The notes under the pieces were generated by a model. It saw nothing but the letters and a program-made list of their open reading frames with translations. It did no database searches and was not told the DNA's origin. The translations under genes were made by a program, and so were the position numbers. Positions 3,631 through 37,247 of a stretch of 64,000 bases of DNA are shown one piece after another. How positions within the stretch are numbered: the first letter of the stretch is position 1; each line of letters begins with the position of its first letter. The DNA comes from Vicinamibacterales bacterium. GTDB taxonomy: Bacteria; Acidobacteriota; Vicinamibacteria; Vicinamibacterales; UBA8438. Location of the stretch: positions 2,905,704-2,969,703 of the forward strand of contig CBDBMV010000002.1 of assembly GCA_965207665.1 (NCBI GenBank), written 5' to 3'.

Positions 3631-5784
3631 ATGAGAAAACTGCGGCTGGGCAACGTGGCGGTGGCGCGCGCGGCGCTGGCCTGCGCGGTGGCGGCAGGCT
3701 CCGCCCTGGTGGCGGCGGAGAACGACGGCGTCATCCGGGGCGTCGTCACGAGCGCCGACGGACCGGAAGCCGGCGTATGGGTGATTGCCGAGACCGACGA
3801 CCTGGACACCGTCTTCCGCAAGATCGTCGTCACCGGCGACGACGGGCGCTACGTTCTGCCGGAGCTGCCGGACGCCGGTTACGACGTCTGGGTGCGCGGC
3901 TACGGCCTGGTCGATTCGGAGCCCGTATCCGGGAGGCCGGATCAGCGGCTAGACCTGACCGCCGTGGTGGCGCCCACGCCGCGCGACGCCGCGCAGGTCT
4001 ATCCCTCCACCTACTGGCTGTCGCTCATCGACCTGCCGGCCGCGCACGAGTTCCCCGGCACCGGCCCGGACGGCAACGGCATCAACCCGCTGATGGGTAG
4101 CCAGGCCGAGTGGATCAACAACCTCAAGGGCTGCCAGCGCTGCCACCAGGTCGGCAGTGAGCGCACCCGGGAGATCCCGGACGTCGACGCGTTCGACTCG
4201 GCGCGCTCGGCTTGGGCCGACCGCGTGCTGCGCGGCCAGCGCGGCGCGCGCATGAACAGCTTCATCACCGGCTTCGGCCCCGAGCGCGCCCTCGACATGC
4301 TGGTGGACTGGACCGACCGGATTGCGGCGGGAGAAGCTCCCTCCGCGCCGCCCCGGCCGCGGGGCATCGAGCGCAACGTCGTCATCACGATGTGGAACTG
4401 GGGCAACAACGTCGCCTTCGTCCACGACGAGATCGCCACCGACAAGCGCAACCCGCGCGTCAACGCCAACGGCCCGCTGTACGGCGTCGACATCGGCAAC
4501 GACTTCCTGCTGGTGACCGACACGAACGAGCACCGCTCGGAGATGATCAAGATCCCGCTCCGGGAGAACGACCCGCCGGTGCCTTCGATGTTCGCGACCG
4601 AGGGCTTCAAGCCGTGGCGCGACTTCGGCGCCGAGGCGGTCTGGAACGACCCCGCCAACCCGCACAACCCGATGATCGACGCCGAGGGGCGCGTCTGGCT
4701 GACGACGCGGATACGCCACCCGGACAACCCGGACTGGTGCCGCGCCGGGTCGGACAACAAGTACGCGCAGTACTTCCCGCTCGACCGCGCCTTCCGCCAC
4801 ACCGGCTACTACGACCCGGAATCCGGAGAGTTCGAGCTGATCGGCACCTGCTACGGCACGCACCACCTGCAGTTCGCCGAAGACGAGCAGGACACGCTGT
4901 ACTTCAGCGGCGGCGGCGCCGTCATCGGCTGGCTGGACACGAAGCTGTACGACGCGACCGGCGACGAGCAGCTCTCCCAGGGCTGGTGCCCGACCGTCAT
5001 CGACACCAACGGCGACGGCGTCATCACGAAGCCGTGGAACGAGCCGCCGCCGCGCGGCAGCCGCGATCCCGCGGCGTTCGATCCGGCGCTCGACACCCGC
5101 GTCGTGGTCGGCGCCTACGGCGTCATCGCCAACCCGCTCGACGACGCGGTCTGGATCGTCTCGGACGATTTCCCGGGGCGGCTGCTGCGGCTCGACCGCG
5201 GCGACGACCCGCCCGCGAGCTGCATCAGCGAGCTGTACACCGTGCCGGTCGAGAAGGGCTACCGGACGCGCGGCCTGGACGTCGACCGCAACGGCGTGCT
5301 CTGGACCGCACTGGCCGGCAGCAGCCACTTCGCCTCGTTCGACCGGGGCAAGTGCACGGTCTTCGGCGGGCCGGAGGTGCGCGGCGGGCGGCAGTGCGAC
5401 GCCGGCTGGTCGTTCTACAAGGCGCCCGGCCCCAACTTCCGCAACACGGACATCGGGACCGACTTCCACTATTACAACTGGGTCGACCAGTTCAACACGC
5501 TCGGCCTCGGGGAGAACGTGCCGATAGCCAACGGCTCGAGCTCGGACTCGCTGCTGGCGCTCGATCCGGAGAGCGGCGAGTGGACCGTCCTGCGCGTGCC
5601 GTACCCGCTCGGCTTCCACAGCCGCGGGCTCGACGGCCGCATCGACGACCCGGACGCCGGCTGGAAGGGCCGCGGTGTCTACGCCACCTACGGCGCTGAC
5701 GCGGCGTGGCACGTGGAGGGCGGCCCCGTGGAGCCGGGCAACCTGGTCAGGTTCCAGATCCGCCCCGACCCCCTGGCGCACTGA
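3631..5784 (+). CDS. Secreted protein with a CarboxypepD_reg-like N-terminal domain and one CxxCH haem-c motif
   Basis: 717-aa ORF with a signal peptide. GVIRGVVTSADGPEAGVWVIAE...VTGDDGRYVLPELPDAGYDVWVRGYGL is a carboxypeptidase-regulatory-like fold motif. A single CQRCH is present. Confidence 0.7.
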   Translation: MRKLRLGNVAVARAALACAVAAGSALVAAENDGVIRGVVTSADGPEAGVWVIAETDDLDTVFRKIVVTGDDGRYVLPELPDAGYDVWVRGYGLVDSEPVSGRPDQRLDLTAVVAPTPRDAAQVYPSTYWLSLIDLPAAHEFPGTGPDGNGINPLMGSQAEWINNLKGCQRCHQVGSERTREIPDVDAFDSARSAWADRVLRGQRGARMNSFITGFGPERALDMLVDWTDRIAAGEAPSAPPRPRGIERNVVITMWNWGNNVAFVHDEIATDKRNPRVNANGPLYGVDIGNDFLLVTDTNEHRSEMIKIPLRENDPPVPSMFATEGFKPWRDFGAEAVWNDPANPHNPMIDAEGRVWLTTRIRHPDNPDWCRAGSDNKYAQYFPLDRAFRHTGYYDPESGEFELIGTCYGTHHLQFAEDEQDTLYFSGGGAVIGWLDTKLYDATGDEQLSQGWCPTVIDTNGDGVITKPWNEPPPRGSRDPAAFDPALDTRVVVGAYGVIANPLDDAVWIVSDDFPGRLLRLDRGDDPPASCISELYTVPVEKGYRTRGLDVDRNGVLWTALAGSSHFASFDRGKCTVFGGPEVRGGRQCDAGWSFYKAPGPNFRNTDIGTDFHYYNWVDQFNTLGLGENVPIANGSSSDSLLALDPESGEWTVLRVPYPLGFHSRGLDGRIDDPDAGWKGRGVYATYGADAAWHVEGGPVEPGNLVRFQIRPDPLAH

Positions 5785-5852
5785 AACCGGCAAGGCGCCC
5801 CGCTCACAAAGAGCGAAGAGAGAGCAACTTCGACCACAGGCGAGCGATGAGC

Positions 5853-5947
5853 AAGCCGCGCACCGCGCGGCTCGCCGGCCACGGAGTGGGGCGATGGGGC
5901 CCCGCGAGTGGCCGGCGGGGGGCTTGGGGGCGTAGCCCCCATCTAGC
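5853..5947 (+). repeat. Structured intergenic repeat, copy A (three hairpins; REP/BIME-like)
   Basis: 95 nt that align by eye with 12900-12986 and 37152-37247. Hairpins: agccgcgc/gcgcggct; cgccggccac/gtggccggcg enclosing gtgggg/ccccgc; gggggc-gta-gccccc. It lies between convergent genes, and the TAG stop of the minus-strand gene (5947-5949) overlaps the last base of the element. Confidence 0.8.
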
Positions 5948-7410
5948 TAAGCCACTATCTGCGGTATAGCCACGCCGTGGACGTCCGTGAGGCGCATGTC
6001 GCGGCCGTTGTAGCGGTAGGTCAGCCGCGTGTGATCGATGCCGAGCAGGTGCAGGATCGTCGCGTGCAGGTCGTGTGACGAGATGCGCTGCTCCACGGCC
6101 TGGTAGCCGAACTCGTCACTGGCGCCGATCACCTGCCCGCCCTGGATTCCGGCGCCGGCCATCCAGCCGGTCATCGTGCCGGGGTTGTGGTCGCGGCCCA
6201 CGCCGCGCTGCGAGATCGGCATGCGCCCGAACTCGGCGTGCCAGACGACCAGCGTGGAGTCGAGCAGGCCGCGCGCCTCCAGGTCGGTCAGCAGGCCGGC
6301 AATCGGCAGGTCCGTCTCCGCAGCGTGCAGGCTGTGGTTCTCCTTCAGGTTGCTGTGCGCGTCCCACGTATCGGTGTTCTGCTGGCCCAGTCCGCCGTGA
6401 AACAACTGCACGAACCGCACGCCGCGCTCGACCAGCCGCCGCGCCAGCAGGCATTGCCGGCCGAATGGCTCGGTGATCGCCTCGTCGAGGCCGTATAGCT
6501 TCTGCGTCGCCGCGGACTCGGCGGAGATGTCCACGGCCTCGGGCGCACAGCCCTGCATCCGGTAGGCCAGCTCGTACGACGATATCCGGGCCGCCAGCTC
6601 CGAGTTGCCGGGATTCTTCTCCAGGTCGATCGCATTCAGCCTGGCCAGCGCGTCCAGGCGCGCGCGCTGCTGCTCAGCGGTCATGCCCTCGGGCGGCTGC
6701 AGGTCGACGATCGGGTCGCCGACTGCGCGGAAAAGGGTCCCCTGGTACGTCGCCGGCATGAACCCGGCGCTCCAGTCGTTCGGCCCGCCGAGCGGACCGC
6801 CGCGGTGGTCGTTCATCACGACGTACGCCGGCAGGCTCGCGCTCTCCGAGCCGAGGCCGTAGGTGACCCACGATCCGACGGCCGGGAAGCCCATCCGGAT
6901 CTGGCCGCTCTGCATCTCGTAGGTCGCCTGGATGTGATCGTTCGACCGGCCGTACAGCGAGCGGATGAACGCCATCCCGTCGACCTTGCGGGCCAGGTGC
7001 GGAAAGATCTCCGACACGTCGATGCCGCTCTCGCCGTGCTTGCGGAACGCGAACGGACTGGGCATCAGCGGACCGGGATGCCCCTGGCGCACGACCACCG
7101 AGTCGGCCAGCGGCTGGCCGGCGTGCCGCTCCAGCGCCGGCTTCGGGTCGAACGTGTCGACCTGGCTCACGCCACCGCTCATGAAGAGCGAGATGACGGC
7201 GGTGGCGCGCGGCGCGAAGTGCGGCGGCTTCGGCGCGAACGGGTTGCCGGGAACGGGCGCGGCGCAGGTATCGGGCTGCAGCGCCGCCGCGGCCAGCAGG
7301 CCCTCGCGATGGAGCAGGTCCGCCAACGCCACGCCGGCGATGCCGCCGCCCGACTGGAACAGGAAATCGCGGCGCGACCAGATCGTCTTCCTGCGGCAGT
7401 GGTGGTGATG
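5947..7410 (-). CDS. DUF1501 domain protein (sulfatase-like fold), Tat signal
   Basis: The track ORF 5947..8535 is over-extended. A plausible start is the ATG at 7410: MAGHHHHCRRKTIWSRRDFLFQSGGGIAGVALA (twin-arginine motif). The body (TFDPKP, WDAH, FGRMP, GRDHNP) is characteristic of DUF1501. It sits directly downstream of a DUF1553 gene, the canonical pairing. Confidence 0.9.
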   Translation of the reverse strand, partial: HHHHCRRKTIWSRRDFLFQSGGGIAGVALADLLHREGLLAAAALQPDTCAAPVPGNPFAPKPPHFAPRATAVISLFMSGGVSQVDTFDPKPALERHAGQPLADSVVVRQGHPGPLMPSPFAFRKHGESGIDVSEIFPHLARKVDGMAFIRSLYGRSNDHIQATYEMQSGQIRMGFPAVGSWVTYGLGSESASLPAYVVMNDHRGGPLGGPNDWSAGFMPATYQGTLFRAVGDPIVDLQPPEGMTAEQQRARLDALARLNAIDLEKNPGNSELAARISSYELAYRMQGCAPEAVDISAESAATQKLYGLDEAITEPFGRQCLLARRLVERGVRFVQLFHGGLGQQNTDTWDAHSNLKENHSLHAAETDLPIAGLLTDLEARGLLDSTLVVWHAEFGRMPISQRGVGRDHNPGTMTGWMAGAGIQGGQVIGASDEFGYQAVEQRISSHDLHATILHLLGIDHTRLTYRYNGRDMRLTDVHGVAIPQIVA

Positions 7411-7424
7411 GCCGGCCATGCGCG

Positions 7425-10094
7425 CTACCTCAGGTACAGGAACTCGTTCAGGTTGAGCATCACGTGCGTGAAGTCTACAAGCGACTGGCCTGCGACAAGC
7501 TCGGCTGCGACGGACGCCTCCGCCGGCGTCGGCGGGCGCGTGAGCGCGATGCGGTACGCCAGCTCGATCTGCTGGTTCACGTCGCCCGGCGCCTCCCGCT
7601 CCAGCCGCTCGGCGAGCAGCCGCGCCTGGTTCAGCACGAACGGGTTGTTCAGCAGCGTCAGCGCCTGCGTGGACACGGTAGACACGTTGCGCGCCGCCGC
7701 CGTCTGGTTCTGGTCGGGCAGGTCGAACGTGTCGAAGAACGGGAAGCCGAGCGAGCGGCGCCGGTAGACGTACACGCTGCGGCGCCACGTCTCCGGACCG
7801 TCCGCCTCGACGCACCAGATCCCCTCGTGCGGCGCCAGGACGGGCCCGCCGTCCGGCGGGCTGCCGCACCACAGCCCCTTGCCACCGGATGTCCGCAGGA
7901 TGTCCTCCGGAACGTGCGGGAACACGGGCGGTCCACCCACCGCGAGGTCGATGCCGCCGCTGACCGTCATGATGGCGTCGCGCAGCGCCTCGGCCTCCAG
8001 CCGCTGCGGCCGGTAGCGCCAGAGCAGCCGGTTTTCGGGGTCCAGCTCCAAGCTCGCAGCGTCGGCGGCGGACGAGGCCATCTTGTACGCCTCGGAGGTC
8101 ATCAGCAGGCGGTGCAGCGCCTTGACGCTCCAGCCGCGGTCCATGAACTCCACCGCCAGCCAGTCGAGCAGCTCCGGGTGCGTCGGCGGATCGCTCATGC
8201 GGCCGAGGTTGTCCAGCGTGCGGACGATGCCGCGGCCGAAGTGGTGGTGCCAGACGCGGTTGACGATGACGCGCGCCGTCAACGGGTTGTCGCGCGATGC
8301 AATCCATTCCGCGAGCGCCAGCCTGCGCCCGGAGGTCCGGCCGTCCGGCCGCGGAATGGCGGTAGGCGGGTCGCCGTAGGTGGCGACGCTCAGGAAGCCC
8401 GGCGACATCTCCGAGCCGGGGCTGAACGGATCGCCGCGGATCAGGAAATAGCTGGGCGGAGCGTCGTAGGCCGGCCCGCCCGGCTCGTGCAGGAACGTGC
8501 CCGGCTCGTCCGGCGGGACACGGCACTCGGGACACCCGATCACGCTGTCGCCCGGACCGTCCGGGGCGAAGCGGTAGTCGCCGTCGGTGACGATCTCCGC
8601 GATATCCGGCGCCGGCGGGCGCTCCGCGTTCAATGCGGCAATCCGCTCGCGCAGCGCGTCCCAGCGCGTCCGGTCTTCCGGGCCGAGCGCGCCGGCGATA
8701 TCCCAGCGCGGCGAGTTGATGGAGAGCACCTGCGCCGCCAGGAGCTGCTCGCCCGGCGTGCGCTCCGCTTCGGGCTTGAACGCCGCCGCCCGGACGTTCT
8801 CCGGGAAGCGCTCCTCGATCAACTCCCGGCGGAACCGATCCCGGTAGGGCGCCTCGATCGCGGCGATCTCGTCCTTCAGCGGTTGCTGCCGGCGGTCAAT
8901 CTCACCATTCCGTGCGCGCCACGCGTCGGCTTCCGCGCGGTCGAGCAGCGGCCAGTCCGTCTCGACGTAGCCGAAGATGGACGCCTGCAGCCGGTAGTAG
9001 TCGCGCTGCGGGATTGGATCGAACTTGTGGTCGTGGCAGCGGGCGCAGTGGACCGTCATGCCGAGCATGCCGCGGCCGATCGTCGCCAGGACGTCGTCCA
9101 GGTAGTCGTGGCGGCGCTCCGGGTTGTCCTTCTCGCGGAACTGCACGCGCGGGCCGGCGCGCAGGAAGCCGGTGGCGATCAGCGTCTCGTCCGTGACGTG
9201 GTCCAGCTCGTCACCCGCGATCTGCTCGCGGATGAACTGGTTGTACGGCTTGTCGGCGTTGAAGGCGTCGATCACGTAGTCGCGGTAGCGCCAGGCGTTG
9301 GGCCGGTTGTAGTCCTGCTCGAAGCCGCTGGAGTCGGCGTAGCGCGCCACGTCCAGCCAGTGGCGGCCCCAGCGCTCGCCGTAGTGCGGCGAGTCGAGCA
9401 GGCGGTCGATCAGCCGCTCCCAGGCCCCGCGCGCGGTGTCGGCCAGATACTCGTCGACCTGCGCCGGCGTCGGCGGCAGGCCGGTCAGATCGAGATAGGC
9501 GCGCCGCAGCAGCGTCAGCCGGTCGGCCTGCGGCGCAGCGCCCACGCCTGCCTCGCGGCGGGCCGCTTCCAGGAACCGGTCGATGGGGTGCGCGTACTCT
9601 TCCGCGGCCGGCACCGGAGCGCGCAGCGGGCGCTGAAACGCCCAGTACTCGCGCGCCTCGGGCGGCAGGCCGCCGCCCTCCAGCGCCGCCCGCGCGTCTG
9701 CGGCCGACGTGGCGGCGGCGGCGTCCCAGTGCGCACCGCCGTCGATCCAGGCGCGCACCGCCTCCAACTCCCCGGCGGTGAGCGCGTCGCCGCTCATCGG
9801 CATCGCCGGCTGATCCAGACCGGCCACCATCCTGAACAGGCGGCTGTCCTCGGCGCGCCCCGGCACGAGCGCCGGGCCCCGCGAGCCGCCTTCCAGGGCG
9901 CCGTCGCGCGTGCGTAGATCGAGATCGGAAAGCTGCGCCGCCGCGCCGTGGCAGTTCCAGCAGCTCCGCTCCATGATGGGGCGGATGTGGTCGGTGAACG
10001 TGACGGGGCCGGTCTGAGCCTCCGCTACGGCGGTCTGGCCCATTGCGCAGATCGCCGCAAGTCCCAACCGGGCGAATCGTCGCGCAACCCGCAT
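7425..10094 (-). CDS. PSCyt1 / DUF1549 / DUF1553 multidomain protein (Planctomycete-type cytochrome-c domain protein)
   Basis: Start re-set to the ATG at 10094 (MRVARRFARLGLAAICAMGQTAVAEAQ), with a GAGGA Shine-Dalgarno upstream. Motifs: CWNCHG near the N-terminus, HCARCHDHKFDPIPQRDYY (DUF1549 signature), NRVWHHHFGRGIV..DN.G (DUF1553). Confidence 0.9.
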   Translation of the reverse strand: MRVARRFARLGLAAICAMGQTAVAEAQTGPVTFTDHIRPIMERSCWNCHGAAAQLSDLDLRTRDGALEGGSRGPALVPGRAEDSRLFRMVAGLDQPAMPMSGDALTAGELEAVRAWIDGGAHWDAAAATSAADARAALEGGGLPPEAREYWAFQRPLRAPVPAAEEYAHPIDRFLEAARREAGVGAAPQADRLTLLRRAYLDLTGLPPTPAQVDEYLADTARGAWERLIDRLLDSPHYGERWGRHWLDVARYADSSGFEQDYNRPNAWRYRDYVIDAFNADKPYNQFIREQIAGDELDHVTDETLIATGFLRAGPRVQFREKDNPERRHDYLDDVLATIGRGMLGMTVHCARCHDHKFDPIPQRDYYRLQASIFGYVETDWPLLDRAEADAWRARNGEIDRRQQPLKDEIAAIEAPYRDRFRRELIEERFPENVRAAAFKPEAERTPGEQLLAAQVLSINSPRWDIAGALGPEDRTRWDALRERIAALNAERPPAPDIAEIVTDGDYRFAPDGPGDSVIGCPECRVPPDEPGTFLHEPGGPAYDAPPSYFLIRGDPFSPGSEMSPGFLSVATYGDPPTAIPRPDGRTSGRRLALAEWIASRDNPLTARVIVNRVWHHHFGRGIVRTLDNLGRMSDPPTHPELLDWLAVEFMDRGWSVKALHRLLMTSEAYKMASSAADAASLELDPENRLLWRYRPQRLEAEALRDAIMTVSGGIDLAVGGPPVFPHVPEDILRTSGGKGLWCGSPPDGGPVLAPHEGIWCVEADGPETWRRSVYVYRRRSLGFPFFDTFDLPDQNQTAAARNVSTVSTQALTLLNNPFVLNQARLLAERLEREAPGDVNQQIELAYRIALTRPPTPAEASVAAELVAGQSLVDFTHVMLNLNEFLYLR

Positions 10095-10102
10095 CAGTTC
10101 CT

Positions 10103-10118
10103 CGTTACGCCCGTAACG
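10103..10118. promoter_or_regulatory. Palindrome CGTTACG-CC-CGTAACG in the divergent control region
   Basis: Perfect 7+7 inverted repeat. It lies 9-24 nt upstream of the PSCyt/DUF1553 start codon and ~145 nt upstream of the divergent X-family gene. A tandem 9-mer GGGTGCATC occurs at 10205-10213 and 10215-10223. Confidence 0.25.
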
Positions 10119-10261
10119 CTCGCCGCCGGAGCGCCGAACGCACCAACATACTACCAAGTCGTGCACGAACGGGTGTCCCCGGCGCGGATTACGCCTTGCG
10201 CCCCGGGTGCATCGGGGTGCATCATGGGTCATTCCGGCGCGGAGCAGGCGTCGGGTGGAGG

Positions 10262-11308
10262 ATGACGATGAGTTTTCGCAATCTGGCGGCGCTTGCAGTG
10301 GTCCTGGGTCTCGCGCTGGCGGCTGCGCCCGCCGCGGCGCAGTCGGAAACCGTAGCGCGCACGGCCTGGGGCGATCCCGACATCCAGGGCGTCTGGGACT
10401 ATCGGACGCTCACGCCGCTCGAACGGCCCCTGGAGCTGGGCGACAAGGCGTTCCTGACGCAGGAAGAGGCGGATGAACTCGAACGCGAGACGCTGGCCCG
10501 CAACGAGTTCCTGCTGAACCGCGAGCGGCAGGAGGCGACGGCCGGCGACCAGGTCGACCGGCGGGATGACGGCACGCCCGGCTTCTACAACAACTTCTGG
10601 ATGGACCGCGGCACGACGGCCATTGGCACGCGCCGCACGTCGCTCATCATCGAGCCGTCCAACGGACGCCTGCCGCCGCTGACGGCGCCGGCCGCCGCGC
10701 GCGCGGCGTCGGCGGAAGCCGAACGCATCGCGGGTGTGCGCCGCGGCATGCTGCCGGCCGCCAGCTACACGGACCTCGACGCGGGCGACCGCTGCATCCA
10801 GCACGCCAAGGCCGGTCCCCCGCTCAGCACCGGCGGCTACAACAACAACGTGCAGATCTTCCAGGCGCCCGGCTACGTGGTGCTGGTCCCGGAGCAGAAC
10901 CGCGAGTCGCGCATCGTTCCGCTCGACGGCCGGCCGCACGTGGCACCGCAGATCCGGCAGTGGATGGGCGACTCTCGCGGTCGCTGGGAAGGCGACACGC
11001 TCATCATCGAGACCGTGCACTTCAACGGCAAGCACGACCAGATCGGCCGGCCGCTGCTGAGCTGGGCCGATAACCTGCGGCTCATCGAGCGGATCACGCG
11101 GCTCGACGCCGAGAACCTGATGTACGAGTACACGGTCGACGACCCGACCATCTGGACGAGCGCCTGGACCGCCCAGCACCCGATGAAGCTGAATCCGGAG
11201 CCGCTGTACGAGTTCGCCTGCCACGAGGGGAACTACGGGCTGGAGGGCATCATGGCCGGCTCGCGCGTAGAGGAAGCCGAGGCGGAGGCGGAAGCCGCTT
11301 CCAGGTAG
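10262..11308 (+). CDS. Secreted protein of an unnamed conserved family ('X domain'), paralogue 1 of 6
   Basis: Start re-set to the ATG at 10262 (MTMSFRNLAALAVVLGLALAAAPAAAQ), with GGAGG 7 nt upstream. Family motifs: TAWGDPDIQGVW, TPLERP, RTSLIIEPSNGRLPPLT, DRC, RIVPLDGRPH, IRQWMGDSRGRWEGDTLIIET, LRLIERITR, YEFACHEGNY. Confidence 0.8.
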   Translation: MTMSFRNLAALAVVLGLALAAAPAAAQSETVARTAWGDPDIQGVWDYRTLTPLERPLELGDKAFLTQEEADELERETLARNEFLLNRERQEATAGDQVDRRDDGTPGFYNNFWMDRGTTAIGTRRTSLIIEPSNGRLPPLTAPAAARAASAEAERIAGVRRGMLPAASYTDLDAGDRCIQHAKAGPPLSTGGYNNNVQIFQAPGYVVLVPEQNRESRIVPLDGRPHVAPQIRQWMGDSRGRWEGDTLIIETVHFNGKHDQIGRPLLSWADNLRLIERITRLDAENLMYEYTVDDPTIWTSAWTAQHPMKLNPEPLYEFACHEGNYGLEGIMAGSRVEEAEAEAEAASR

Positions 11309-11320
11309 GTCCCGGATAGG

Positions 11321-12802
11321 CTAGCGGCCCGTCTCCAGCCACTCCAGGATGCGCGGCGTCACGAACTCCGGCGCCTCGCGGTGCGGGCCGTGGCCCACGC
11401 CCGGCAGCACCTGGATCGTCAGGGGCCCCTCGACCCAGTCCCACATGCCGTTCACCGACGGGTTCAGGAAGAATGGCCCGTCCTTGCCGTAGATGAACAG
11501 CGTCGGCGCCGTGACGGGCGGAAACTCGCCCAGCTTGAACCCGACCGACTCCGTCTCCATCGTCGTCGGCGACGTCGGCCAGTTCGTCTTGTAGAAGCCG
11601 ACGACCGAGTCGGTGTCGAGGCACTGGGCGGACTCTCTCCGCAATTGGGCCAGGTTCGCCGGTTCGTCCGGGTCCCGCGGCGCGGCGCGGACACCCTGGC
11701 CGAAGTCGGCGCCGGCCTCCGGGAACACCTGCATGTTGCGCTGGAACTGGTTCGCCTGCTGCTGCGCCGGGTTGTCGATGAGCTCGCGGGTCAAACCCCC
11801 GGGATGCACCGTGCCAATGGAAACCAGCCGCTCCGTCTGCTCCGGGCGCGTCATCGCGAAGTGCCAGGCATAGAGCCCGCCGCTGTCCTGCCCCACGATG
11901 GTCGCCTTGTCTTCGCCGAAGTGCTCGATGATGGCGCTGATGTCGTCGGAGATGTGCTCCGCGAAGTAGTTCTCGTAGCCCTCCGGCTTGTCGCTCATGT
12001 CGGTGCCGCGGGTGGACATCGCGACGACGCGGTACTTCTCCGCCAGCATGGGAATCTGGTTCCGGTAGTCGTGCCACGGCGCGGAGACGCCGTGCACGAA
12101 GATCACCAGCGGCCCCTCGCCGGCCGTGTGGTAAACGATCCTGACACCGTTCGAGTCGACCGATCCCTCGGTGGCGACGACCGACTCGCCGCGCCAGTCG
12201 GTGACGGTCACCGCGGGCGCGCTGACGCACGGCTTCCGCGTCAGCCACATCAGGCCGAGGTTCGCGAACGCCTCGCGGTCGACCGAGATTTCCTGGTTGA
12301 CGCGATAGGCGTCCGGCGATACGAAGTAGGACCGGCCCCGCAGCGAGTAGGTGGTGGCGTTGTGCTCGATCTCGGGAGTCTCCCAGAACGCGCTGTAGTA
12401 CCCGCCCAGGTCTCCCCCGACCGGACCCTGCTGCAGCAGCGCAAAGCCCGCGTCGTACACGACGTAGCGGACGAGCGACTGACCGCCCAGGCCGAACTCG
12501 TAGAAGATCATCCCCTCGCCGGAAATCGATGTCCCGTCGCGGCCGGTCAGATGCACTTCGACCTTCAGGAAGCGGTTGTCGATGTGCGTGACCCGCTCGA
12601 TGCCCGCCAGCGGCCCGGGAGGAAACAGGCCCACGTCATCCGGCGGAACCCACTCGACCTCCCACACGCCCGTGAGGTAGCGCGGGTCGAACGGCTGCAT
12701 CATCTCGGCGCCGGTGGTGGGCCCATCCTGGGCGGCGGCCGGTTGCGGGGCCGCCACTAGCGCGACGCCGATGACGCACGCCGCAAGCATCGTTTTCTTC
12801 AT
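11321..12802 (-). CDS. Secreted fusion protein: unknown ~190-aa N-terminal domain + alpha/beta hydrolase with Asp at the nucleophile elbow
   Basis: Start re-set to the ATG at 12802 (MKKTMLAACVIGVALVAAPQPAAAQ). From ...AVTVTDWRGESVVATEGSVDSNGVRIVYHTAGEGPLVIFVHG it is colinear with the mature 14469..15440 protein. The nucleophile elbow is G-Q-D-S-G-G. Confidence 0.8.
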   Translation of the reverse strand: MKKTMLAACVIGVALVAAPQPAAAQDGPTTGAEMMQPFDPRYLTGVWEVEWVPPDDVGLFPPGPLAGIERVTHIDNRFLKVEVHLTGRDGTSISGEGMIFYEFGLGGQSLVRYVVYDAGFALLQQGPVGGDLGGYYSAFWETPEIEHNATTYSLRGRSYFVSPDAYRVNQEISVDREAFANLGLMWLTRKPCVSAPAVTVTDWRGESVVATEGSVDSNGVRIVYHTAGEGPLVIFVHGVSAPWHDYRNQIPMLAEKYRVVAMSTRGTDMSDKPEGYENYFAEHISDDISAIIEHFGEDKATIVGQDSGGLYAWHFAMTRPEQTERLVSIGTVHPGGLTRELIDNPAQQQANQFQRNMQVFPEAGADFGQGVRAAPRDPDEPANLAQLRRESAQCLDTDSVVGFYKTNWPTSPTTMETESVGFKLGEFPPVTAPTLFIYGKDGPFFLNPSVNGMWDWVEGPLTIQVLPGVGHGPHREAPEFVTPRILEWLETGR

Positions 12803-12899
12803 GACCTTCCCTCTGGAAGCCCGTATTGCAACCCCGCCGCGGAGCTGCCGGGATGGCGACAAACGGGGCGGCGACATCCGCGTCAAGCGGTCGGCGCCC

Positions 12900-12986
12900 A
12901 AGCCGCGCACGGCGCGGCTCGGCGGCCACGGCGCGGGGCTACGGGGTCCCCGCTAGTGGCCGCCGGGGGTTCGGGGCGCAGCCCCG
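12900..12986 (+). repeat. Structured intergenic repeat, copy B
   Basis: Aligns with copies A and C. The outer stem cggcggccac/gtggccgccg and the terminal hairpin cggggc-gca-gccccg both carry compensatory changes relative to copy A. It lies between two minus-strand genes. Confidence 0.75.
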
Positions 12987-13004
12987 ACGTGTTGAAGCCG
13001 CCGG

Positions 13005-14423
13005 CTAATTGCTGGTCCGCTTGGTGAGGTCTTCCTTGTCGATGGTGTACTTCTGGAAGATGAAGAACATCTCGTCCCAGCTCTGCTCGCCCCAGTAGAC
13101 CTCGCGGTCCGGACTCGGGTTGTAACGGTTGCGGATGCTGTTGTCGAAGTGTCCCACCGTCTTGAGCGTGCTGCCGGCAGGCACCTTCAGCGGCTCGACG
13201 AAGTCGTACTCGATCTGCCAGTTGAAGTCGTAGTTCGGCACGTGCAGCAGCGTTTCCTCGGTGCCGTCCGGCCAGACGACGATGTAGGTCATGTCCTTGC
13301 CGCGGAAGTGCATGTGCGGCCACACGCCGTAGACCGTAATGTCGTCCTGCACCGGCCAGATGCCGGTAATCCTGAAGTCGTCGGCGTGCGGCGGGATGTT
13401 CGGCGTTCGCGTGAAGCCGGAACCCGCCTGCAGCTCCAACTGCTCCTCGCCCTCCACTATGCGGACGGGGCCGGTGCCGCCGAACTCGCCGGAGCCAACG
13501 GTCAGCATCCGGCGGCGCGGCGTGTCCTTGGCGAACCAGAAGCCGGCAACCGAGCGGTCGGTTTCCGGACGGCCCGTCAGGGTGTAGTGCATCTGGAACT
13601 CGAGGTTGCGATCGGCGTAAACCAGCTTCGCCGTGCCCTCGGGGAAGCGGTTGAAGCCGCCCCCAGGCCGGTAGAAGATGAGCTGCGCGTCCGGGGTGAA
13701 TTCGCGGGCGGCCTCTCTGCGCGCCAGCTTCACCGCGGGGTCTTCGTTCGGATTGATCGGGACCGGCTGCGGGATCATCTGGCCGCCGGGGTGCACCTGC
13801 TCCAGGCCCAGTTCTGTCCCCGGCGGCATTGGCCGCGTGAATATCCCGGCGTGGTGCACCACCGCCGGGTTGCCAGGCCGCAACTGGACCGCTTCCAGAT
13901 AGACGTCATCGTCGAACGGGTACTCCATCCAGACGTCCAGGTATTCGAGCTCGCCCTGGGCGGGCAACTCGACCTCGATTGGCATCTCGACGATGTAGTC
14001 CGGCGGTCGCGGGTGCAGCCAGTCGCTCGCGAACTCCGGAAGCTCGGGAGCCGGCCCGTCGCCCAGCGGCGCGCCGCCGTCCGCCCACGCGGCGATCGTG
14101 TCGACATCCGCCTGGCTCAACGCCGTGACGTCCTTGAACTCCCCGAAGCGCTGGTCCGCGAACCACGGCGGCATCTCGCGCGAGACGACCTTGGTCTTGA
14201 TGGCGCGGGCCCACGGGCGCGCCTCCTGGTAGGAGGTCAGCGACATCGGCGCCACCTGGCCATCCCGGTGGCAGCTCGCGCAGTTCTCGTACAGGATGCG
14301 CCCCACGTCCCCGTTGAACGTGGGCACCGCGGCTGCCTTCTCGTTGGCCACCGCCGTCCCCGCGAGCGCTACAACCGCGAAGAGGGCCGCGCCAAGCGCC
14401 GCGCTCGATCGAACTGCAGTCAT
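13005..14423 (-). CDS. Secreted haem-c (CxxCH) protein with PHM/DBH-like copper monooxygenase motifs, paralogue 1
   Basis: 472 aa with a signal peptide. CASCH followed by MSLTSYQEARPWARAIKTKVVSREMPPWFAD; HH (VVHHAGIF), HMH (WPHMHFRGKDM) and SWDEM. Colinear with 41568..43010. Confidence 0.7.
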   Translation of the reverse strand: MTAVRSSAALGAALFAVVALAGTAVANEKAAAVPTFNGDVGRILYENCASCHRDGQVAPMSLTSYQEARPWARAIKTKVVSREMPPWFADQRFGEFKDVTALSQADVDTIAAWADGGAPLGDGPAPELPEFASDWLHPRPPDYIVEMPIEVELPAQGELEYLDVWMEYPFDDDVYLEAVQLRPGNPAVVHHAGIFTRPMPPGTELGLEQVHPGGQMIPQPVPINPNEDPAVKLARREAAREFTPDAQLIFYRPGGGFNRFPEGTAKLVYADRNLEFQMHYTLTGRPETDRSVAGFWFAKDTPRRRMLTVGSGEFGGTGPVRIVEGEEQLELQAGSGFTRTPNIPPHADDFRITGIWPVQDDITVYGVWPHMHFRGKDMTYIVVWPDGTEETLLHVPNYDFNWQIEYDFVEPLKVPAGSTLKTVGHFDNSIRNRYNPSPDREVYWGEQSWDEMFFIFQKYTIDKEDLTKRTSN

Positions 14424-23656: not shown

Positions 23657-26600
23657 TTAGAAGTTGTACTGGAAGCTGAGCTTGATCAGACGACCGGGCT
23701 GCAGGCCGATCGGCATCAGGTACGACGGACCCAACGCCTGTTGCTCGCGCGAGACGGCGTTCTCGTTCAGCAGGTTGTAGACGTCGAAGCTCGCGCGCAC
23801 GTTGCCGCCGAGGCCGAAGTCGATCACCCTGGCAATCCGCAGGTCGAGCTGGTTCAGCCGGTCGCCGAATGCCGTACCCGGCGTCACAACGTTGAGCGCA
23901 ACGCGGTCGAGCGTCGGCGTGCGGCCCAGCGCCGCCGCCGCCTCGGTCAGCGGCACCTGGTAGATGGCCTCCCGCCGCGGACCCGGCCGCGAGAAGAAGG
24001 CGGCCGAGACGTCGATGTCGTACGGGAACGTGTACGAGCCCGACAGCGACAGGTTCGTCAGCCAGTTGTCCTCGGCGCGGCAGAACTCCGTTGGCAACAG
24101 CGTGCCGCGGCTGCCGGCGATGCCCGCGAGCTGTCCCGTGGTGCCGCGGCCCACGCGCGACGCGTCACGGACCGAGAAGTCGCCGTAGAGCACCTCAGGC
24201 TGGTTCTGCTGTAAATCGCAGTAGTCCGTGATGCGCCGGCCGGTGGCCAGACCGCCCTGCAGCAGCACGTCTTCGAGCCGGGCGCTCACGCTGAGGTCGA
24301 TGCCGTGCCACATCTCGCTCTCGCCGCCGTACACCTCCGTGCCGGCCTGCCAGTTGTTCTGCGGCCGCAGGGCCGCCTCGGGCGTCAGGTCGACTACCGT
24401 CAGCGTTCGGCCGCCGCCGTCGGGCAGGCGTGAATCCTGGGGCACGTTGACGGTGTACTCCACGAAGTCATCCGGGCCGAGGTTGCGGTTGTCCCAGGCG
24501 CTGAAGTTGAAGTAGACGCGCCGGAAATAGCCGAAGTCGAGCGACACGTTGTCGAGCAGCTCGTGCTGGATGCTGCCCGAGTACTCCCAGTTGCCCTTCT
24601 TCTTGCCCCAGCCGAAGGCCCAGTCAGGGTCGAAGAAATTGCTGGGCTCGTGCGTGCCGAACGAGGGGTTGTCGGGCGCACCCATCAGCTCGCCGTTCGG
24701 AAACGGATTGAGCGGATCGCCCTGCACGAGGCCGTCGCCCGCCACGCACGAGCTGGCCGTGGGGTCGGCCGCCGACGGGATGCACGAGGGGAATATGGGC
24801 ACTCCGCCGAAGATCACGAAGTGGCCGGGCGCCCCGTCCAACCAGAGCCGCGACATGGTCGTATTGTTCGCGATGGGATTGAGCTCGCCCGCCAGGGCGA
24901 TCGCGTCGCGGCTGCCGAAGCGCGAGGCGGAGCCCTTGAGCGCCGTGCGGCCGTCCCCGCGCAGGTCGTAGACCACGCCGAGCCGCGGCTGCAGGTCCTT
25001 CCAGCTCGCGGCGGTCGCGCCCTGGACGGAAATCAGCTCGGGCCCCCACGGCGAGTGGTGGCGCTCGCCGGCGGCGGACATCTGGTCGGGGTAGTGGCCG
25101 TTGAAGTAGTCGAACCGCAGCCCCAGGTTGATGGTCAGTCGGTCGAGCGTCCACTGGTCCTGCGCGTACACGCCGACATTCGTCAACTCGTTGGTTTCAG
25201 GAGGCCGCGACCCGAACTGCGCCTGCAGCGGGAAGCCGGCGATGGTCAGAATGTTCGTCCAGTTCGCGCCGTGGCGATACGCCTCGTTCTGCCACTTGGT
25301 GGTGGTCCGAATACCGAACTTCAGGTTGTGGCTGCCGGTGACGTACGACATCGACGCGCGCGCGGTCTGGTTCAGCGTGGAGAACCACACCGTGTTGCCG
25401 ACGAAGAAGTACCCCATGTTGCGCGACATCGTGAGGTTGGCCCCGTCGAACACGCTCGGCAGGTCCGTGCGCGCGTCGAAGTGCGCGCCGGAGCCCGTCG
25501 CATCGAACGCGTTGTTGAGCGGGTTCAGAATGCTGTGCGCGGGCAGCCGGGAATAGCCGGCCTCGAACAGGATGCGATCGGTATGCGGCCGCACCCATGT
25601 CGCCTGGTAGGTATTGAACGCCGAGGTCCCCTCGCTGCCCGCTTCCGGCGCGATGAAGATCGGAAAGAGCTGCGAGCCGGTGAGCGCCGGCGTCTGCTTG
25701 ACGTTGCTGTTGGCGTAGTACACCTGCACCTTGTCGCGCTCGGTCGCCTGCCACGTGAGACGCCCCGTGTACTCGTAGTTGTTCGACACTTCCCTGGTCG
25801 GATTGTCGAGATCCGGAACGTACCGCAACGCGCTGGTGTCGGTGTTGTTGAACAGGCCAGAGGGAAAGAAGCTGGCCCGGCGATAGGTGTAGCTCGCGTA
25901 GAACCACAGGTTGTCGCGCACGATCGGGCCGCCGAGCTGCGGGGCGACCTGCCACGACTGGTCCGTCTTGAAGGCGCCGTCCCTGCCGCCCGTGATGCCG
26001 CGGTCGATCAGGTCCTGGTCCACGTTGTTCCACAACCAGTCGGCGTGCCCGTAGTTGGCGTAGAAGCCGCCGGTGAACGTGTTGCTCCCCTCCTTGGGAA
26101 TCAGGTTCATCCGCACGCCGCCCGTCTCGACCTCGGCCGCGTTCGAGGAATAGTCGTAGACGTACTCCGCGATCGACGTGTCCTGCGGCAGGGCGCCCGG
26201 CGCGCCGTCGAACGCGACCGAATTGACGTCGAAGCCGTCGATGTGCACCTCGGCGTCCTCCTCCGCGGAACCGTGGATGGTCAGGCGGTTGTTGGAGACG
26301 CCGCTGACGCCGCCCGTGTCGATCGGCACCGCCGTGGTCGGACCGCCCTGAACATTCATCGCCGGGATGAGCAGCGCCAGCGAGTCGTAGCCGCGCGTGG
26401 TCGGGAGCGTTTCGAAAACCTCGCGGTCGATGGTCTCGCTCTGCCGCACGCTCTGCACGTCAATCGTGGGTGTGGCTTCGGTGACCGTGACCGTTTCCTC
26501 GAGCGCGCCGACAGCCATCTCGGCGTCGACGTTCGCCGTGAACCCCGTGCTGAGCGCAACGCCCTCGCGGACGAGCGTACTGAAGCCCGGCAAGGTGAAC

Positions 26601-26872
26601 GTCACGGTGTAGTCGCCCGTCTCCAGCGCGACGATCAGGTACTGGCCGTTGCCGTCGGTGACGGCGGTGCGCACCTGCTCGATCAGGGCCGGGCTGCGCG
26701 CCTCGACCGTGACCCCTGGCAGGACGCCGCCGGTGGAGTCCGTGACCGTGCCGCCGATGGCCTGGGCATAAGCCAGGGCCGGCGCGATCAGGACGATTGC
26801 GACGCTTGCTGCCGCCGCGCGGCTGATGCGCCGCGGGCCTGGCGAAACCGACGATGTTCGAACGCTCCGCAT
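23657..26872 (-). CDS. TonB-dependent-receptor-like outer-membrane protein with a CarboxypepD_reg N-terminal domain, tandem copy 1
   Basis: ~1,070 aa. Signal peptide, GGTVTDSTGGVLPGVTVEA...DGNGQYLIVALETGDYTVTFTLPGF (CarboxypepD_reg), a plug-like region, a long beta-rich body and a C-terminal ...KLSFQYNF ending in an aromatic residue. The ATG at 26872 is chosen by analogy with copy 2; the track uses the GTG at 26881. Confidence 0.85.
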   Translation of the reverse strand: MRSVRTSSVSPGPRRISRAAAASVAIVLIAPALAYAQAIGGTVTDSTGGVLPGVTVEARSPALIEQVRTAVTDGNGQYLIVALETGDYTVTFTLPGFSTLVREGVALSTGFTANVDAEMAVGALEETVTVTEATPTIDVQSVRQSETIDREVFETLPTTRGYDSLALLIPAMNVQGGPTTAVPIDTGGVSGVSNNRLTIHGSAEEDAEVHIDGFDVNSVAFDGAPGALPQDTSIAEYVYDYSSNAAEVETGGVRMNLIPKEGSNTFTGGFYANYGHADWLWNNVDQDLIDRGITGGRDGAFKTDQSWQVAPQLGGPIVRDNLWFYASYTYRRASFFPSGLFNNTDTSALRYVPDLDNPTREVSNNYEYTGRLTWQATERDKVQVYYANSNVKQTPALTGSQLFPIFIAPEAGSEGTSAFNTYQATWVRPHTDRILFEAGYSRLPAHSILNPLNNAFDATGSGAHFDARTDLPSVFDGANLTMSRNMGYFFVGNTVWFSTLNQTARASMSYVTGSHNLKFGIRTTTKWQNEAYRHGANWTNILTIAGFPLQAQFGSRPPETNELTNVGVYAQDQWTLDRLTINLGLRFDYFNGHYPDQMSAAGERHHSPWGPELISVQGATAASWKDLQPRLGVVYDLRGDGRTALKGSASRFGSRDAIALAGELNPIANNTTMSRLWLDGAPGHFVIFGGVPIFPSCIPSAADPTASSCVAGDGLVQGDPLNPFPNGELMGAPDNPSFGTHEPSNFFDPDWAFGWGKKKGNWEYSGSIQHELLDNVSLDFGYFRRVYFNFSAWDNRNLGPDDFVEYTVNVPQDSRLPDGGGRTLTVVDLTPEAALRPQNNWQAGTEVYGGESEMWHGIDLSVSARLEDVLLQGGLATGRRITDYCDLQQNQPEVLYGDFSVRDASRVGRGTTGQLAGIAGSRGTLLPTEFCRAEDNWLTNLSLSGSYTFPYDIDVSAAFFSRPGPRREAIYQVPLTEAAAALGRTPTLDRVALNVVTPGTAFGDRLNQLDLRIARVIDFGLGGNVRASFDVYNLLNENAVSREQQALGPSYLMPIGLQPGRLIKLSFQYNF

Positions 26873-27060: not shown

Positions 27061-30000
27061 CTAGAAGTTGTACTGGAAGCTGACCTTGGCCAGGCGCCCC
27101 GGCTGCAGGCCTACCGGCTGCAGGTACACGGGGCCGAACCCGCCCACCTCGCGCGATACGGCGTTGGAGTTGAACAGGTTGTAGATGTCGAAGCTCGCCC
27201 GCAGGTTGCCGCCCGTGCCGAAGTCGAGCAGCTTGGCGAACCGCAGGTCCATCTGGTTGAGCGTGTCGCCGAACTCCGTCCCCGGAGGGAGGATGTTCAG
27301 GGCCGGACCGCCCACGGTCGGCGTGCGCCCAAGCGCCGCGGTGGCCTCCGCGACCGGAACGCGGTAGATCGCCTCGCGCCGGGGTCCGGGCCGCGAGAAG
27401 AACGTGGCCGAGACGTCGATGTCGTAGGGGAACGTGTACGAGCCCGACAGCGACAGGTTCGTCAGCCAGTTTTCCTCCGCCCGGCAGAAGTCCAGGGCGC
27501 GCAGGTTGCCCCGGCTGCCGGCAATCCCGGCCAACTGTCCGGTCGTCCCGCGGCCGACGCGCGACGCCGGGAAGGAGTTGAAATCACCCCAATTGACCTC
27601 GGGCTGCTGCTCCTGGTAGCCGCAGTAGTCGGCAATCCGCCGCCCGGTAGCCAGGCCGCCCTGCATCAGGAAGTTCTCGATCCGGGCGGAGATGCTGACG
27701 TCGACGCCGTGCCACATTTCGCTCTCCCCGCCGAGGTTGTTGGTGCCGGTCTTGACGTTGTCCTGCGCCCGGGCGAGCGCTTCCGGCGTCATGTCCACGA
27801 CGGTGAGCGGATAGCCGCCGCCGCCGGGCAGCCGGTCGTCCTGCGGGGCCATGATCGTGTAGCTCTCGAAGTCCTCGGGACCGACGGCCAGGTTGTTCCA
27901 CGCGTCGAAGTTGACGTAGCTGCGCCGGAAGTAACCGACATCGAGCGAGACGTTATCCAGCAACTCGTGCTGCACGCTCCCCGAGAACTCCCAGTTGGCC
28001 TTCTTCAGACCCCAGCCGAACGCCCACTCGGGATCGAAGCGCTGGGTGATGGCATGGGCGCCCAGGATCACGTTGTTTGTAGATATGAACAGCTCGCCGT
28101 TGGGATATGGCAGGTTCGGATCGCCCTGCGGAATGCCGTCGCCGGGAATGCACCCGGCGCTGAAGCAGGACGGCAGCGGAAGGCCAGGAATGAGGAGGTT
28201 GAAGGGCAGCCCATCGCTCCACATGCGGTCGTGCGTCCGGTTGTTGGCCACCGGGTTCAGCTCGCCGGCCAGGGAGATGGCGTCGCGGCTGCCGAACCGC
28301 GACGCGGACGCCTTGAGCGCCGTCCGGCCGTCGCCGCGCAGGTCGTAGACCACGCCCAGGCGCGGCTGGAGGTCCTTCCAGATCGTCGCCGTCGCGCCTT
28401 CGATGTTGATGGGATGCGCCACCCACGTCGAATGCCCGGGCTGGCCCGGCGACGACGCGTGGTCGGGGTAGAAGCCCTTGAAGTAGTCCCACCGCAGGCC
28501 GGCATTGATCGTCAGCCGGTCCAGCGTCCACTGGTCCTGCACGTAGACGCCGGTATTCGTCAACTGGTTGGTCTCGGGCGGCCGCGACACGAATACCGCC
28601 ATTACCGGGACGCCGAATACGGTGCGGGCGTTCGTCCAGTTGGACCCGCTGCGGTACGCCTCGTTCTGCCACTTGAGCGTGGTCCGGAAGCCGAACTTCA
28701 GGTTGTGGCTGCCGGTGACGTACGACATCGAGGCGCGCGCCGTCTGGTTCAGCGTGGAGAACCACACGGTGTTGCCTTCGAACAGCCCGCCCATGTTGCG
28801 CGACATCGTCAGTGGAATCGGGCCGACCAGCTCCAGCAGGCCCGGCAGATCGGTCCGCGCGCCGAAGTGCGCGCCGTCGCCCTTGGCGTCGAACGCGTTG
28901 TTGAGCGGGTGCAGGACGCTGTGCGCGGGCAGCCGCGAGTAGCCTGCCTCGAACAGGATCCGGTCCGTCTGCGGCCTGACCCATGTCGCCTGATAGGTGT
29001 TGAACGCGGACGTGCCCTCGCTGCCCGCTTCCGGGGCGATGTAGAGCGGATAGAGCTGCGATCCGGTGAGCGCCGGCGTCTGCTTGACGTTGCTGTTGGC
29101 GTAGTAGACCTGGACCTTGTCGCGCTCGCTCGCCTGCCACGTCAGCCGCCCCGTGTACTCGTAGTTGTTGGAAACCTCCCGCGTCGGGTTGTCGGGGTCG
29201 GGCACATATATCGTGGAGCTCGTGTCCTTGCTGTTGAACAGACCCGACGGGAAGAAGGCGGCCCGACGGTAGGTGTAGCTCGCGTAGAACCACAGGTTGT
29301 CGCGCACGATTGGCCCGCCGAGCTGCGGGGCGACCTGCCACGTCTGGTCGGCCCTGAAGGCGCCGTCCTTGCCGCCCGTGATCCCGCGGTCGATCAGATC
29401 CTGGTCGACGTTGTTGGCCAACCAGCTCGGGTGTCCGTAGTTCGCGTAGAAACCGCCGGTAATCGTGTTGCTCCCCTCCTTGGGAATCATGTTCATCCGC
29501 ACGCCGCCGGTCTCGACCTCGGCCGCGTTCGAGGAATAGTCGTAGACGTACTCCGCGATCGACGCGTCCTGCGGCAGGGCGCCGGGCGCGCCGTCGAACG
29601 CCACGGAATTCACGTCGAAGCCGTCGATGTGCACCTCGGCGTCATACTCGTCCGAGCCGTGGATGGTGAGCCGGTTGTTGGGCACGCCGCTGAGGCCGCC
29701 CGTGTCGATCGGCACCGCGGTGGACGGGCCGCCCTGGATGTTCATGGCGGGAATGAGCAGCGCCAGCGAGTCGTAGCCGCGCGTCGTCGGGAGCACCTCG
29801 AAGATCTCGCGGTCGATCGTCTCGCTCTGCCGCACGCTCTGGACGTCGATGGTCGGGGTGGCCTCGGTGACGGTGACCGTCTCCTCCAGCGCGCCGACGG
29901 CCATTTCGGCGTCGACGTTGGCCGTGAACCCCGTGCTGAGCGCGACGCCCTCACGCACGAGCGTGCTGAAGCCGGGCAGCATGAACGTCACGGTGTAGTC

Positions 30001-37208: not shown

Positions 37209-37247
37209 GGCTTGCCGGGGGGCTTGGGGGCGCAGCCCCCATCTAGC
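37152..37247 (+). repeat. Structured intergenic repeat, copy C
   Basis: 96 nt. The outer stem cggcaagccc/gggcttgccg is fully compensated relative to copies A and B. The terminal hairpin is gggggc-gca-gccccc, followed by the same 3' tail catctagc as copy A. It overlaps the tctA 3' end and contains the TAG stop (37243-37245) of the minus-strand gene. Confidence 0.8.

Follow-up and report, generated by a model that had tools for sequence, protein, structure and literature searches.

The unit of REP sequences and REPINs is one hairpin, 20-40 nt in length, that bears a conserved GTAG (or CGTC) tetranucleotide at one of its ends and mostly occurs as inverted dimers, and the RAYT gene that accompanies them, which encodes a Y1 HUH transposase (PF01797), is typically present as a single copy flanked by the repeats. 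In BIMEs, several types of palindromic unit are joined to other conserved short modules; the order of these parts varies, and they form clusters. MITEs that depend on a DDE transposase have terminal inverted repeats matching an autonomous insertion sequence and are bordered by a target-site duplication of fixed length, and an intrinsic (Rho-independent) terminator is a GC-rich hairpin followed by a T/U tract on the transcribed strand. A survey of GTAG and CGTC repeats does not list Acidobacteria among the phyla with such repeat families; the phylum comes up there solely in connection with tyrosine transposases flanked by TIRs (Di Nocera et al. 2013, PMC3733652).

The window analyzed here, a 64,000-nt stretch of a Vicinamibacterales genome, contains three stretches that a first-pass annotation had described as copies of a three-hairpin intergenic element with compensatory stem substitutions, located at gene 3′ ends, and for which it had considered a REP/BIME-type repeat, a terminator or a small RNA. 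The analyses presented below make it quite probable that the three stretches are members of a lineage-specific, non-autonomous family of hairpin-rich intergenic repeats that is comparable to REP/BIME mosaics. The family is previously undescribed, but the kind of bacterial repeat to which it belongs (REP/BIME-like, a heterogeneous kind) is already known and does not constitute a new kind of gene.

Results

Copy number and distribution

The genome that contains the window (G000; G001, G003, G012 and similar numbers denote genomes of relatives) has a size of 4.3 Mb and a G+C content of 69%, and is assembled in two contigs of 4.11 Mb and 181 kb. The three copies, which we name A, B and C, are all present on the plus strand at the positions originally given for them (Table 1), and the stem sequences quoted for them are right. 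They align at 85% mean column identity. An HMM built from the three copies and used with nhmmer on G000 recovered each of them at E values of 3e-24 to 3e-29, together with ~54 additional full-length copies and about 20 partial matches to the 3′ part. A genome scan with a covariance model, which had been proposed as the way to find out whether further copies exist, gave 60 copies. The total for G000 is about 57-60, and the copies are located on both replicons and on both strands. A chance origin of the resemblance between the three copies in the window is excluded.

Table 1. Positions of the three copies, their parts and the adjoining features in the window.
Feature	Position	Strand	Basis or remark
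Copy A 5′ module, type II	5785-5852	+	Within a ~160-nt stretch that relatives lack; 75-80% identical to the interior of the CTAG MITE
Copy A core	5853-5947	+	HMM, alignment, folding
Copy A hairpin 0	5853-5860 with 5864-5871	+	
Copy A hairpin 1, outer stem	5872-5881 with 5907-5916	+	
Copy A hairpin 1, inner stem	5885-5890 with 5899-5904	+	
Copy A hairpin 2	5925-5930 with 5934-5939	+	
Copy A 3′ tail	5940-5946	+	Abuts the stop codon (CTA, 5947-5949) of a DUF1501 gene on the minus strand
Stretch adjoining copy B	12803-12899	+	~95 nt; missing from G001, common to G003, single-copy in the genome
Copy B core	12900-12986	+	Antisense to both minus-strand neighbors (alpha/beta hydrolase, cytochrome-c-motif protein)
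TctA gene	35679-37208	+	Ends inside copy C
Copy C core	37152-37247	+	Contains the end of the TctA gene
DsbD_N-like gene	37243-37896	-	Convergent to the TctA gene; its stop lies within the tail of copy C

With Rfam, whose families include terminators, Acidobacteria motifs and group II intron domains, the whole window gave zero matches at gathering thresholds, and at a permissive E-value copy A matched eukaryotic (microRNA, lncRNA) and retroviral families only at the level of chance (E 0.7-6); the Rfam search suggested by the first-pass annotation thus returned no described family. In addition, full-text literature searches found no description of such repeats for Vicinamibacteria or sponge Acidobacteria.

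The covariance model was also used to determine the distribution of the element. Within the genus it is present in 12 of the 13 other genomes, ten of which have at least 102 copies; one has 31 and one, G002, has 7, and the genome without the element is G015. Of the 11 further genera in the family, 3 have the element, as do 6 of the 16 other families of the order that were sampled. In an even sample of 300 genomes of the phylum it is limited to its own order plus one single match. Matches obtained by an exact-pattern scan of public genomes fall almost all in uncultured Vicinamibacterales/Acidobacteriota MAGs, and the sequencing runs that contain the window DNA are sponge metagenomes. One exact-pattern match is located on VFZL01000029.1, a contig of a lake water-column MAG that carries the label Acidimicrobiia; this is either a mis-binned contig or a rare case beyond the phylum. 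The family is confined to part of the Vicinamibacterales, and its copies turn over between species.

Gain, loss and junctions

Copies A, B and C are each missing or much shorter in at least one relative, and the same holds for eight other loci. At the site of copy A, the convergent flanking genes are separated by 162 nt in G000 versus 8-21 nt in G001, G003 and G012, where the site is empty. Copy B is missing from G001, in which 6 nt separate the two genes, whose translation is probably coupled; the 200-nt insert is also present in G003. The stretch that adjoins copy B contains, on its minus strand, the ribosome-binding site of the alpha/beta-hydrolase gene, and this gene has a paralogue 3.1 kb away (repeat family D2). 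In the window, tandem paralogous genes at 23657-26872 and 27061-30219 (minus strand), and also 11320-11619/14468-14767, are 75-87% identical over long stretches (repeat families D1-D5 and D12). The spacer containing copy C measures 99 nt in the window versus 34-59 nt in four relatives, and the TctA C-termini encoded there are shorter and different; in the window, about 20 end codons of the TctA gene are encoded by the element and its stop is the conserved CTAG of the element. At one site in G003 just the first 25 nt of a 5′ module are left.

The best pair of filled and empty sites was obtained for locus C2:390836 compared with G001. The empty site reads GCGCCGA|TGAAGAAG and the filled site reads GCGCCGA-TGA-GCAGG...CTAACGATGC-TGA-AGAAG. 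This junction has a 3-bp ambiguity (TGA) and surrounds a 5′-truncated copy whose tail supplies a new in-frame ATG. The remaining junctions display unrelated spacer sequence or element remnants, and the flanks of the closest relative are only 87-96% identical. Because several "empty" sites carry such unrelated spacer or remnants, deletion, replacement and insertion are not always separable there. Judged from these junctions, deletion and replacement take place besides insertion.

Architecture and modules

The core of the element, ~95 nt, consists of hairpin 0, hairpin 1, a G-run linker, hairpin 2 and a 3′ tail. In hairpin 0, a stem of 8 bp is capped by a triloop of the ACG type. Hairpin 1 has an outer stem of 10 bp, six positions of which are variable, followed by a 3x2 internal loop, an invariant inner stem (GCGGGG/CCCCGC) and a 9-nt loop that includes an invariant GGGG. 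The linker between hairpins 1 and 2 is an invariant GGGGG, and hairpin 2 has the sequence GGGGC-GCA-GCCCC with a closing pair that covaries (T-A, C-G, G-C). The conserved 3′ tail of ~8-12 nt reads ATCTAACG(ATGC), AAGTAGGTA(ATGC) or GAGTGGCA(ATGC), and the variant AAGTAGGT is also found; the tails past hairpin 2 are ATCTAACG-like, with AAACCCCC on the opposite strand.

Upstream of the core, 22 copies (about 40%) contain an extra module of ~50 nt with a fourth hairpin (GGGGACGGC...GCCGTCCCC). This module is almost exclusive to the core, which it accompanies in 22 of 24 module matches. The copies that lack it have another 5′ module or none. The alternative module, type II, is present on copy A and on at least two others, and the composite of type II module and core is found again in G003 and G012. 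It resembles the interior of a separate repeat family to the extent given in Table 1.

This second family, a MITE of ~190 nt, is bounded by long terminal inverted repeats (CAGCCCGTGG...CCACGGGCTG), and CTAG flanks most of its copies. Examples are located at 2762516-2762760, 3687362-3687610 and 800907-801150 of contig C2 of G000. Since at least 14 of its copies are near-identical, it was probably active recently. The segment of its interior that is in common with the 5′ module of copy A is ~65 nt long.

Several derivatives of the element were found. Minis with the structure CAAGCC-GCGCA-GCCCCATCTAACGATG are internal deletions between the GCGCA that hairpins 0 and 2 have in common, and at some sites G001 contains minis opposite full copies in G000. 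Head-to-tail arrays are present in G017, in G024, where the array has four copies, and in G004, where five copies lie within 700 nt. The four longest forms start with what reads as a degenerate hairpin 2 and the tail of a preceding copy, and may thus be partial tandems. With two alternative 5′ modules, at least seven hairpin-1 alleles, minis and tandem arrays, the family displays a BIME-like mosaic, which is a resemblance of organization; a sequence relation to the BIMEs of E. coli was neither found nor expected.

Pairing and exchange of the central hairpin

In agreement with the structure proposed at first, each copy in the window folds as three hairpins, on either strand, with z values of -3.6 to -5.5 versus dinucleotide shuffles. 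In 56 cores from G000, 96.5% of the cells are standard pairs, versus 38-51% when the 3′ partners were slid. Nine pairs have changed on both sides; of these, hairpin 0 contributes four and the hairpin-1 outer stem the remaining five. The hairpin-1 inner stem and the hairpin-2 core are nearly invariant and therefore uninformative on covariation. Across lineages (63 copies, 10 or more genera) 93% of the cells pair versus 36-60% when slid, and both sides changed in 16 of 28 pairs; this alignment had been fitted to the model, a procedure that is biased towards the structure. To determine the strand on which the element folds, G-U and A-C mismatches were compared; the ratios of 16 to 34 in the genome and 21 to 6 across lineages are contradictory and dominated by subfamilies.

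The first-pass annotation had taken the compensatory substitutions as the mark of selection on structure. A caution applies here: compensating changes among the copies of one genome can reflect swapping of whole hairpins instead of repeated selection. The 29 haplotypes of the outer stem in G000 can be condensed into about seven alleles with perfect pairing and variants that have one mismatch. We compared twelve orthologous loci of G000 and G001, whose CDS flanks are 84-96% identical. At five of them the G001 core is deleted or otherwise unalignable. Among the seven with an alignable core in both genomes, two are nearly unchanged (98/104 and 97/108), and at the other five hairpin 1 differs as a block, with hairpins 0 and 2 and the flanks the same. 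The clearest of these cases have 8-14 mutually compensating differences, which include the linked inner variants GGAGTGGGG/GCGAG versus GGCGCGGGG/GCTAG. Similarly, the hairpin-1 stem of copy B contains GGCCAC/GTGGCC in G000 versus CAGCCC/GGGCTG in G003, and hairpin-1 alleles are common to different species. The simplest reading of these blocks is short-tract exchange of the central hairpin among copies. Because hairpin 1 is swapped as a block among few alleles, many compensating cells are single events, and the three copies in the window sample three alleles and not three independent sets of compensatory changes. Pairing is nonetheless maintained across families of the order.

Two further features are conserved besides the standard pairs. 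Two G.A/A.G pairs in tandem occupy fixed places in the hairpin-1 outer stem of several families (41 GA and 42 AG cells). In addition, four G-tracts of at least 4 Gs in the order a-b-long loop-c-d, with the spacing G4-N4-G4-N18-G4-N3-G4, are present in 53 of 56 copies from G000 and in 48 of 58 cross-lineage copies. Two of these tracts are unpaired in the hairpin model and are nonetheless 95% or more conserved; they are candidates for an alternative pairing, a quadruplex or a protein site. The presence of this architecture, including the two unpaired G-runs, across an order is more than a decaying selfish repeat needs, and could reflect a host function. One may go further and view the family as a long-lived, vertically inherited REPIN-type replicator that relies on an unrecognised non-Y1 enzyme, or as a domesticated switch element in which the G-tracts would allow the three-hairpin fold versus a G-quadruplex on the G-rich strand and the tandem G.A/A.G pairs would form a motif of the protein-binding type. 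Either version is unlikely in our judgment.

Genomic context and transcription

To assign the gene context of the copies we used a crude codon-usage gene caller built for the analysis. By these calls, 37 copies are located in tandem spacers (23 co-oriented and 14 anti-oriented with the genes), 15 in divergent spacers and 5-6 in convergent ones; among all spacers of at least 50 nt, these types number 986, 473 and 110, respectively. Hence, copies fill the spacer types in proportion to their availability and in both orientations; gene 3′ ends are not preferred, and no rule of orientation reaches significance. The observation that copies sit at gene 3′ ends, two of them between convergent genes, is true of A and C, which are the convergent cases, and of B, which follows the stop of a minus-strand gene, but it does not extend to the family. 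From the GC skew, the origin lies near 0.6 Mb and the terminus is close to 2.62 Mb; with respect to these, the G-rich strand is leading in 31 versus 21 copies in G000, which is no significant replication-strand bias of the kind seen with IS200/IS605.

No T-tract follows any of the hairpins, and a terminator scan of positions 5000-14000 of the window detected no terminator-like site at copies A or B. Lacking both a T-tract and an orientation bias, the element is unlikely to be an intrinsic terminator, one of the possibilities raised initially. Another of them, a discrete small RNA, is likewise unsupported: there is no bias in spacer type or orientation and no Rfam family.

Transcripts that include the element may nevertheless exist. 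Two contigs of one sponge metatranscriptome, 92-95% identical to the window, extend from the upstream gene into the core of copy A (196 nt) and from the core into the downstream gene (150 nt). They fit read-through transcription in a related strain, but they are unstranded, may contain some DNA and are silent on a discrete RNA. Also, the 3′ tail often ends 0-12 nt ahead of a start codon and in one case provides a new in-frame ATG. These data bear on the possibility that the element is a host-selected, cis-acting RNA element, the hairpins of which stabilize or process mRNA, insulate adjacent genes or set translation starts. The conservation of the structure across families of the order, the invariance of the unpaired G-runs and the two orthologous copies that are near-unchanged between species would all be expected for such an element. 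However, its orientation with respect to transcription is near random, as the tandem spacers show; 15 copies lie between divergent genes; copy numbers range from 0 to over 100 inside one genus, and orthologous sites are frequently empty. Together with the lack of a T-tract and the ambiguous nature of the contigs, this makes a cis-acting RNA element quite unlikely. A host function is possible, but position and orientation do not indicate one.

Search for a mobilising enzyme

No mobilising enzyme was found: for the candidates Y1 transposase, IS1380-type DDE transposase and reverse transcriptase, the distribution does not follow that of the element. The larger genomes of the genus and family (G002, G005, G010, G013 and G024) contain dozens of identical copies of IS1380-type, IS200-type and group-II-intron-type (RT) elements, of which the 4-Mb genomes, including G000, contain almost none.

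If the element were a classical MITE that a DDE transposase moves in trans, such as one of the IS1380 or IS5 type abundant in some relatives, this would account for the presence/absence polymorphism and for internally deleted derivatives that retain both ends. IS1380 is numerous in several members of the genus, and a real inverted-repeat MITE, the CTAG family, exists in the same genome and has a module in common with copy A. The ends of the element, however, match in inverted orientation at only 4 of 7 (5 of 10) positions, and no target duplication was consistent across the filled/empty junctions examined. We also considered whether the end variants on the 5′ and 3′ sides represent a long target duplication, a reading that was rejected on account of inconsistent per-copy matches. 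Moreover, PF13701 (IS1380 type) is missing from G001 and G003, both with more than 100 copies of the element, and is abundant in G002 and G015, which have 7 and none, respectively. No element is present at the IS1380-type loci checked, and G000 contains no cargo-bearing version; its sole case of inverted partial copies around a cargo gene encloses an ordinary glycosyltransferase. A trans-mobilized MITE is thus very unlikely. Separately, end motifs of the integron attC type (GTTRRRY/RYYYAAC) were considered and rejected, since their order is wrong for pairing and the copies are dispersed.

Matches to an HMM of the long form have an identical 3′ position in all but one case, and their 5′ ends cluster at model positions of about 70, 83, 117 and 170, which are hairpin boundaries. 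A SINE-like element that is retrotransposed from its 3′ end would account for a 3′ end that does not vary and for 5′ truncation immediately past stable hairpins. Against this, PF00078 (reverse transcriptase) is absent from the element-bearing genomes G017, G028 and G035 and present in ten element-free ones, the minis are directly explained by deletion between short repeats, and the long forms are partly tandem composites, so that we regard retrotransposition as highly improbable.

Hardly credible at all is a REPIN/REP population maintained by a RAYT: the element is indeed a hairpin-based, vertically persistent, high-copy intergenic repeat and Y1 genes are found in the three other element-carrying genera of the family, but PF01797 had no match in G000 or in any of 14 genomes of the genus (controls matched in 6 named genomes), its presence in 7 of 21 element-bearing versus 7 of 20 element-free genomes among 41 relatives gives no association, the Y1 loci are without flanking element, the fixed end has no GTAG or CGTC tag and there is no replication-strand bias.

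Discussion

The reading that we prefer remains that of a non-autonomous repeat family. Its copies are gained and lost in short intergenic spacers, decay via deletion between short direct repeats, build tandem arrays and exchange the whole central hairpin, all of which the above results show. The exchange would probably occur by short-tract gene conversion, for which the conserved hairpins 0 and 2 could provide the homology arms. Pairing may be kept because only folded copies propagate or persist, a requirement that could apply to DNA in single-stranded form or to read-through RNA. The element would be tolerated owing to its location in spacers and to the stop, and sometimes start, codons that it supplies to the genes it touches. 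The enzyme responsible for its spread would not be a RAYT.

These results add a well-defined repeat family to a phylum for which hardly any such elements have been described. As a REP-like population that lasts across an order without RAYT, it makes the question of how such populations are maintained testable in a new lineage. The repeats are also of practical relevance, as they change gene ends and thereby bear on the annotation of sponge-symbiont genomes, and they limit short-read assembly of these genomes. Several contigs of the short-read relative G001 end exactly at orthologous element sites (for example C39/C55, C99/C96, C108:1 and C44:1).

How does the family compare with known systems? 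Correia/NEMIS, ERIC/IRU, RUP and Rickettsia palindromic elements are, like the element described here, about 100-200 nt long, intergenic and stably folded, and they share with it the ability to fuse with reading frames, the donation of stop or start codons and the existence of internally deleted derivatives. It differs from these MITEs in that neither terminal inverted repeats nor a target-site duplication were found for it, and it is not tracked by the three enzyme types searched for. With the CGTC-type REPs, and further repeats that lack a transposase of their own, it has in common that they are high-copy hairpin repeats without a discoverable flanking or associated transposase gene, but those are single hairpins of 8-9 bp, mostly dimers, and the sequence, size and architecture of the element are unrelated to them (PMC3733652).

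Close parallels are provided by the BIMEs and REPs of Enterobacteria and Pseudomonas. The element differs from these, and from their single hairpin of 20-40 nt, by its length of ~95 nt with three different hairpins, by the lack of a GTAG/CGTC tag and by the absence of a RAYT from the genus, and its arrays are head-to-tail, unlike the inverted dimers of REPINs. In agreement with the REP/BIME-like option, which is the one of the initial possibilities that holds, the element is found as many copies dispersed between genes, and its hairpins are conserved across an order. Like BIMEs and REPs, it consists of GC-rich palindromic units located in spacers, with different stem types, mosaic modules and tandem clusters, with copy numbers that differ between relatives, and with compensating stem differences between types.
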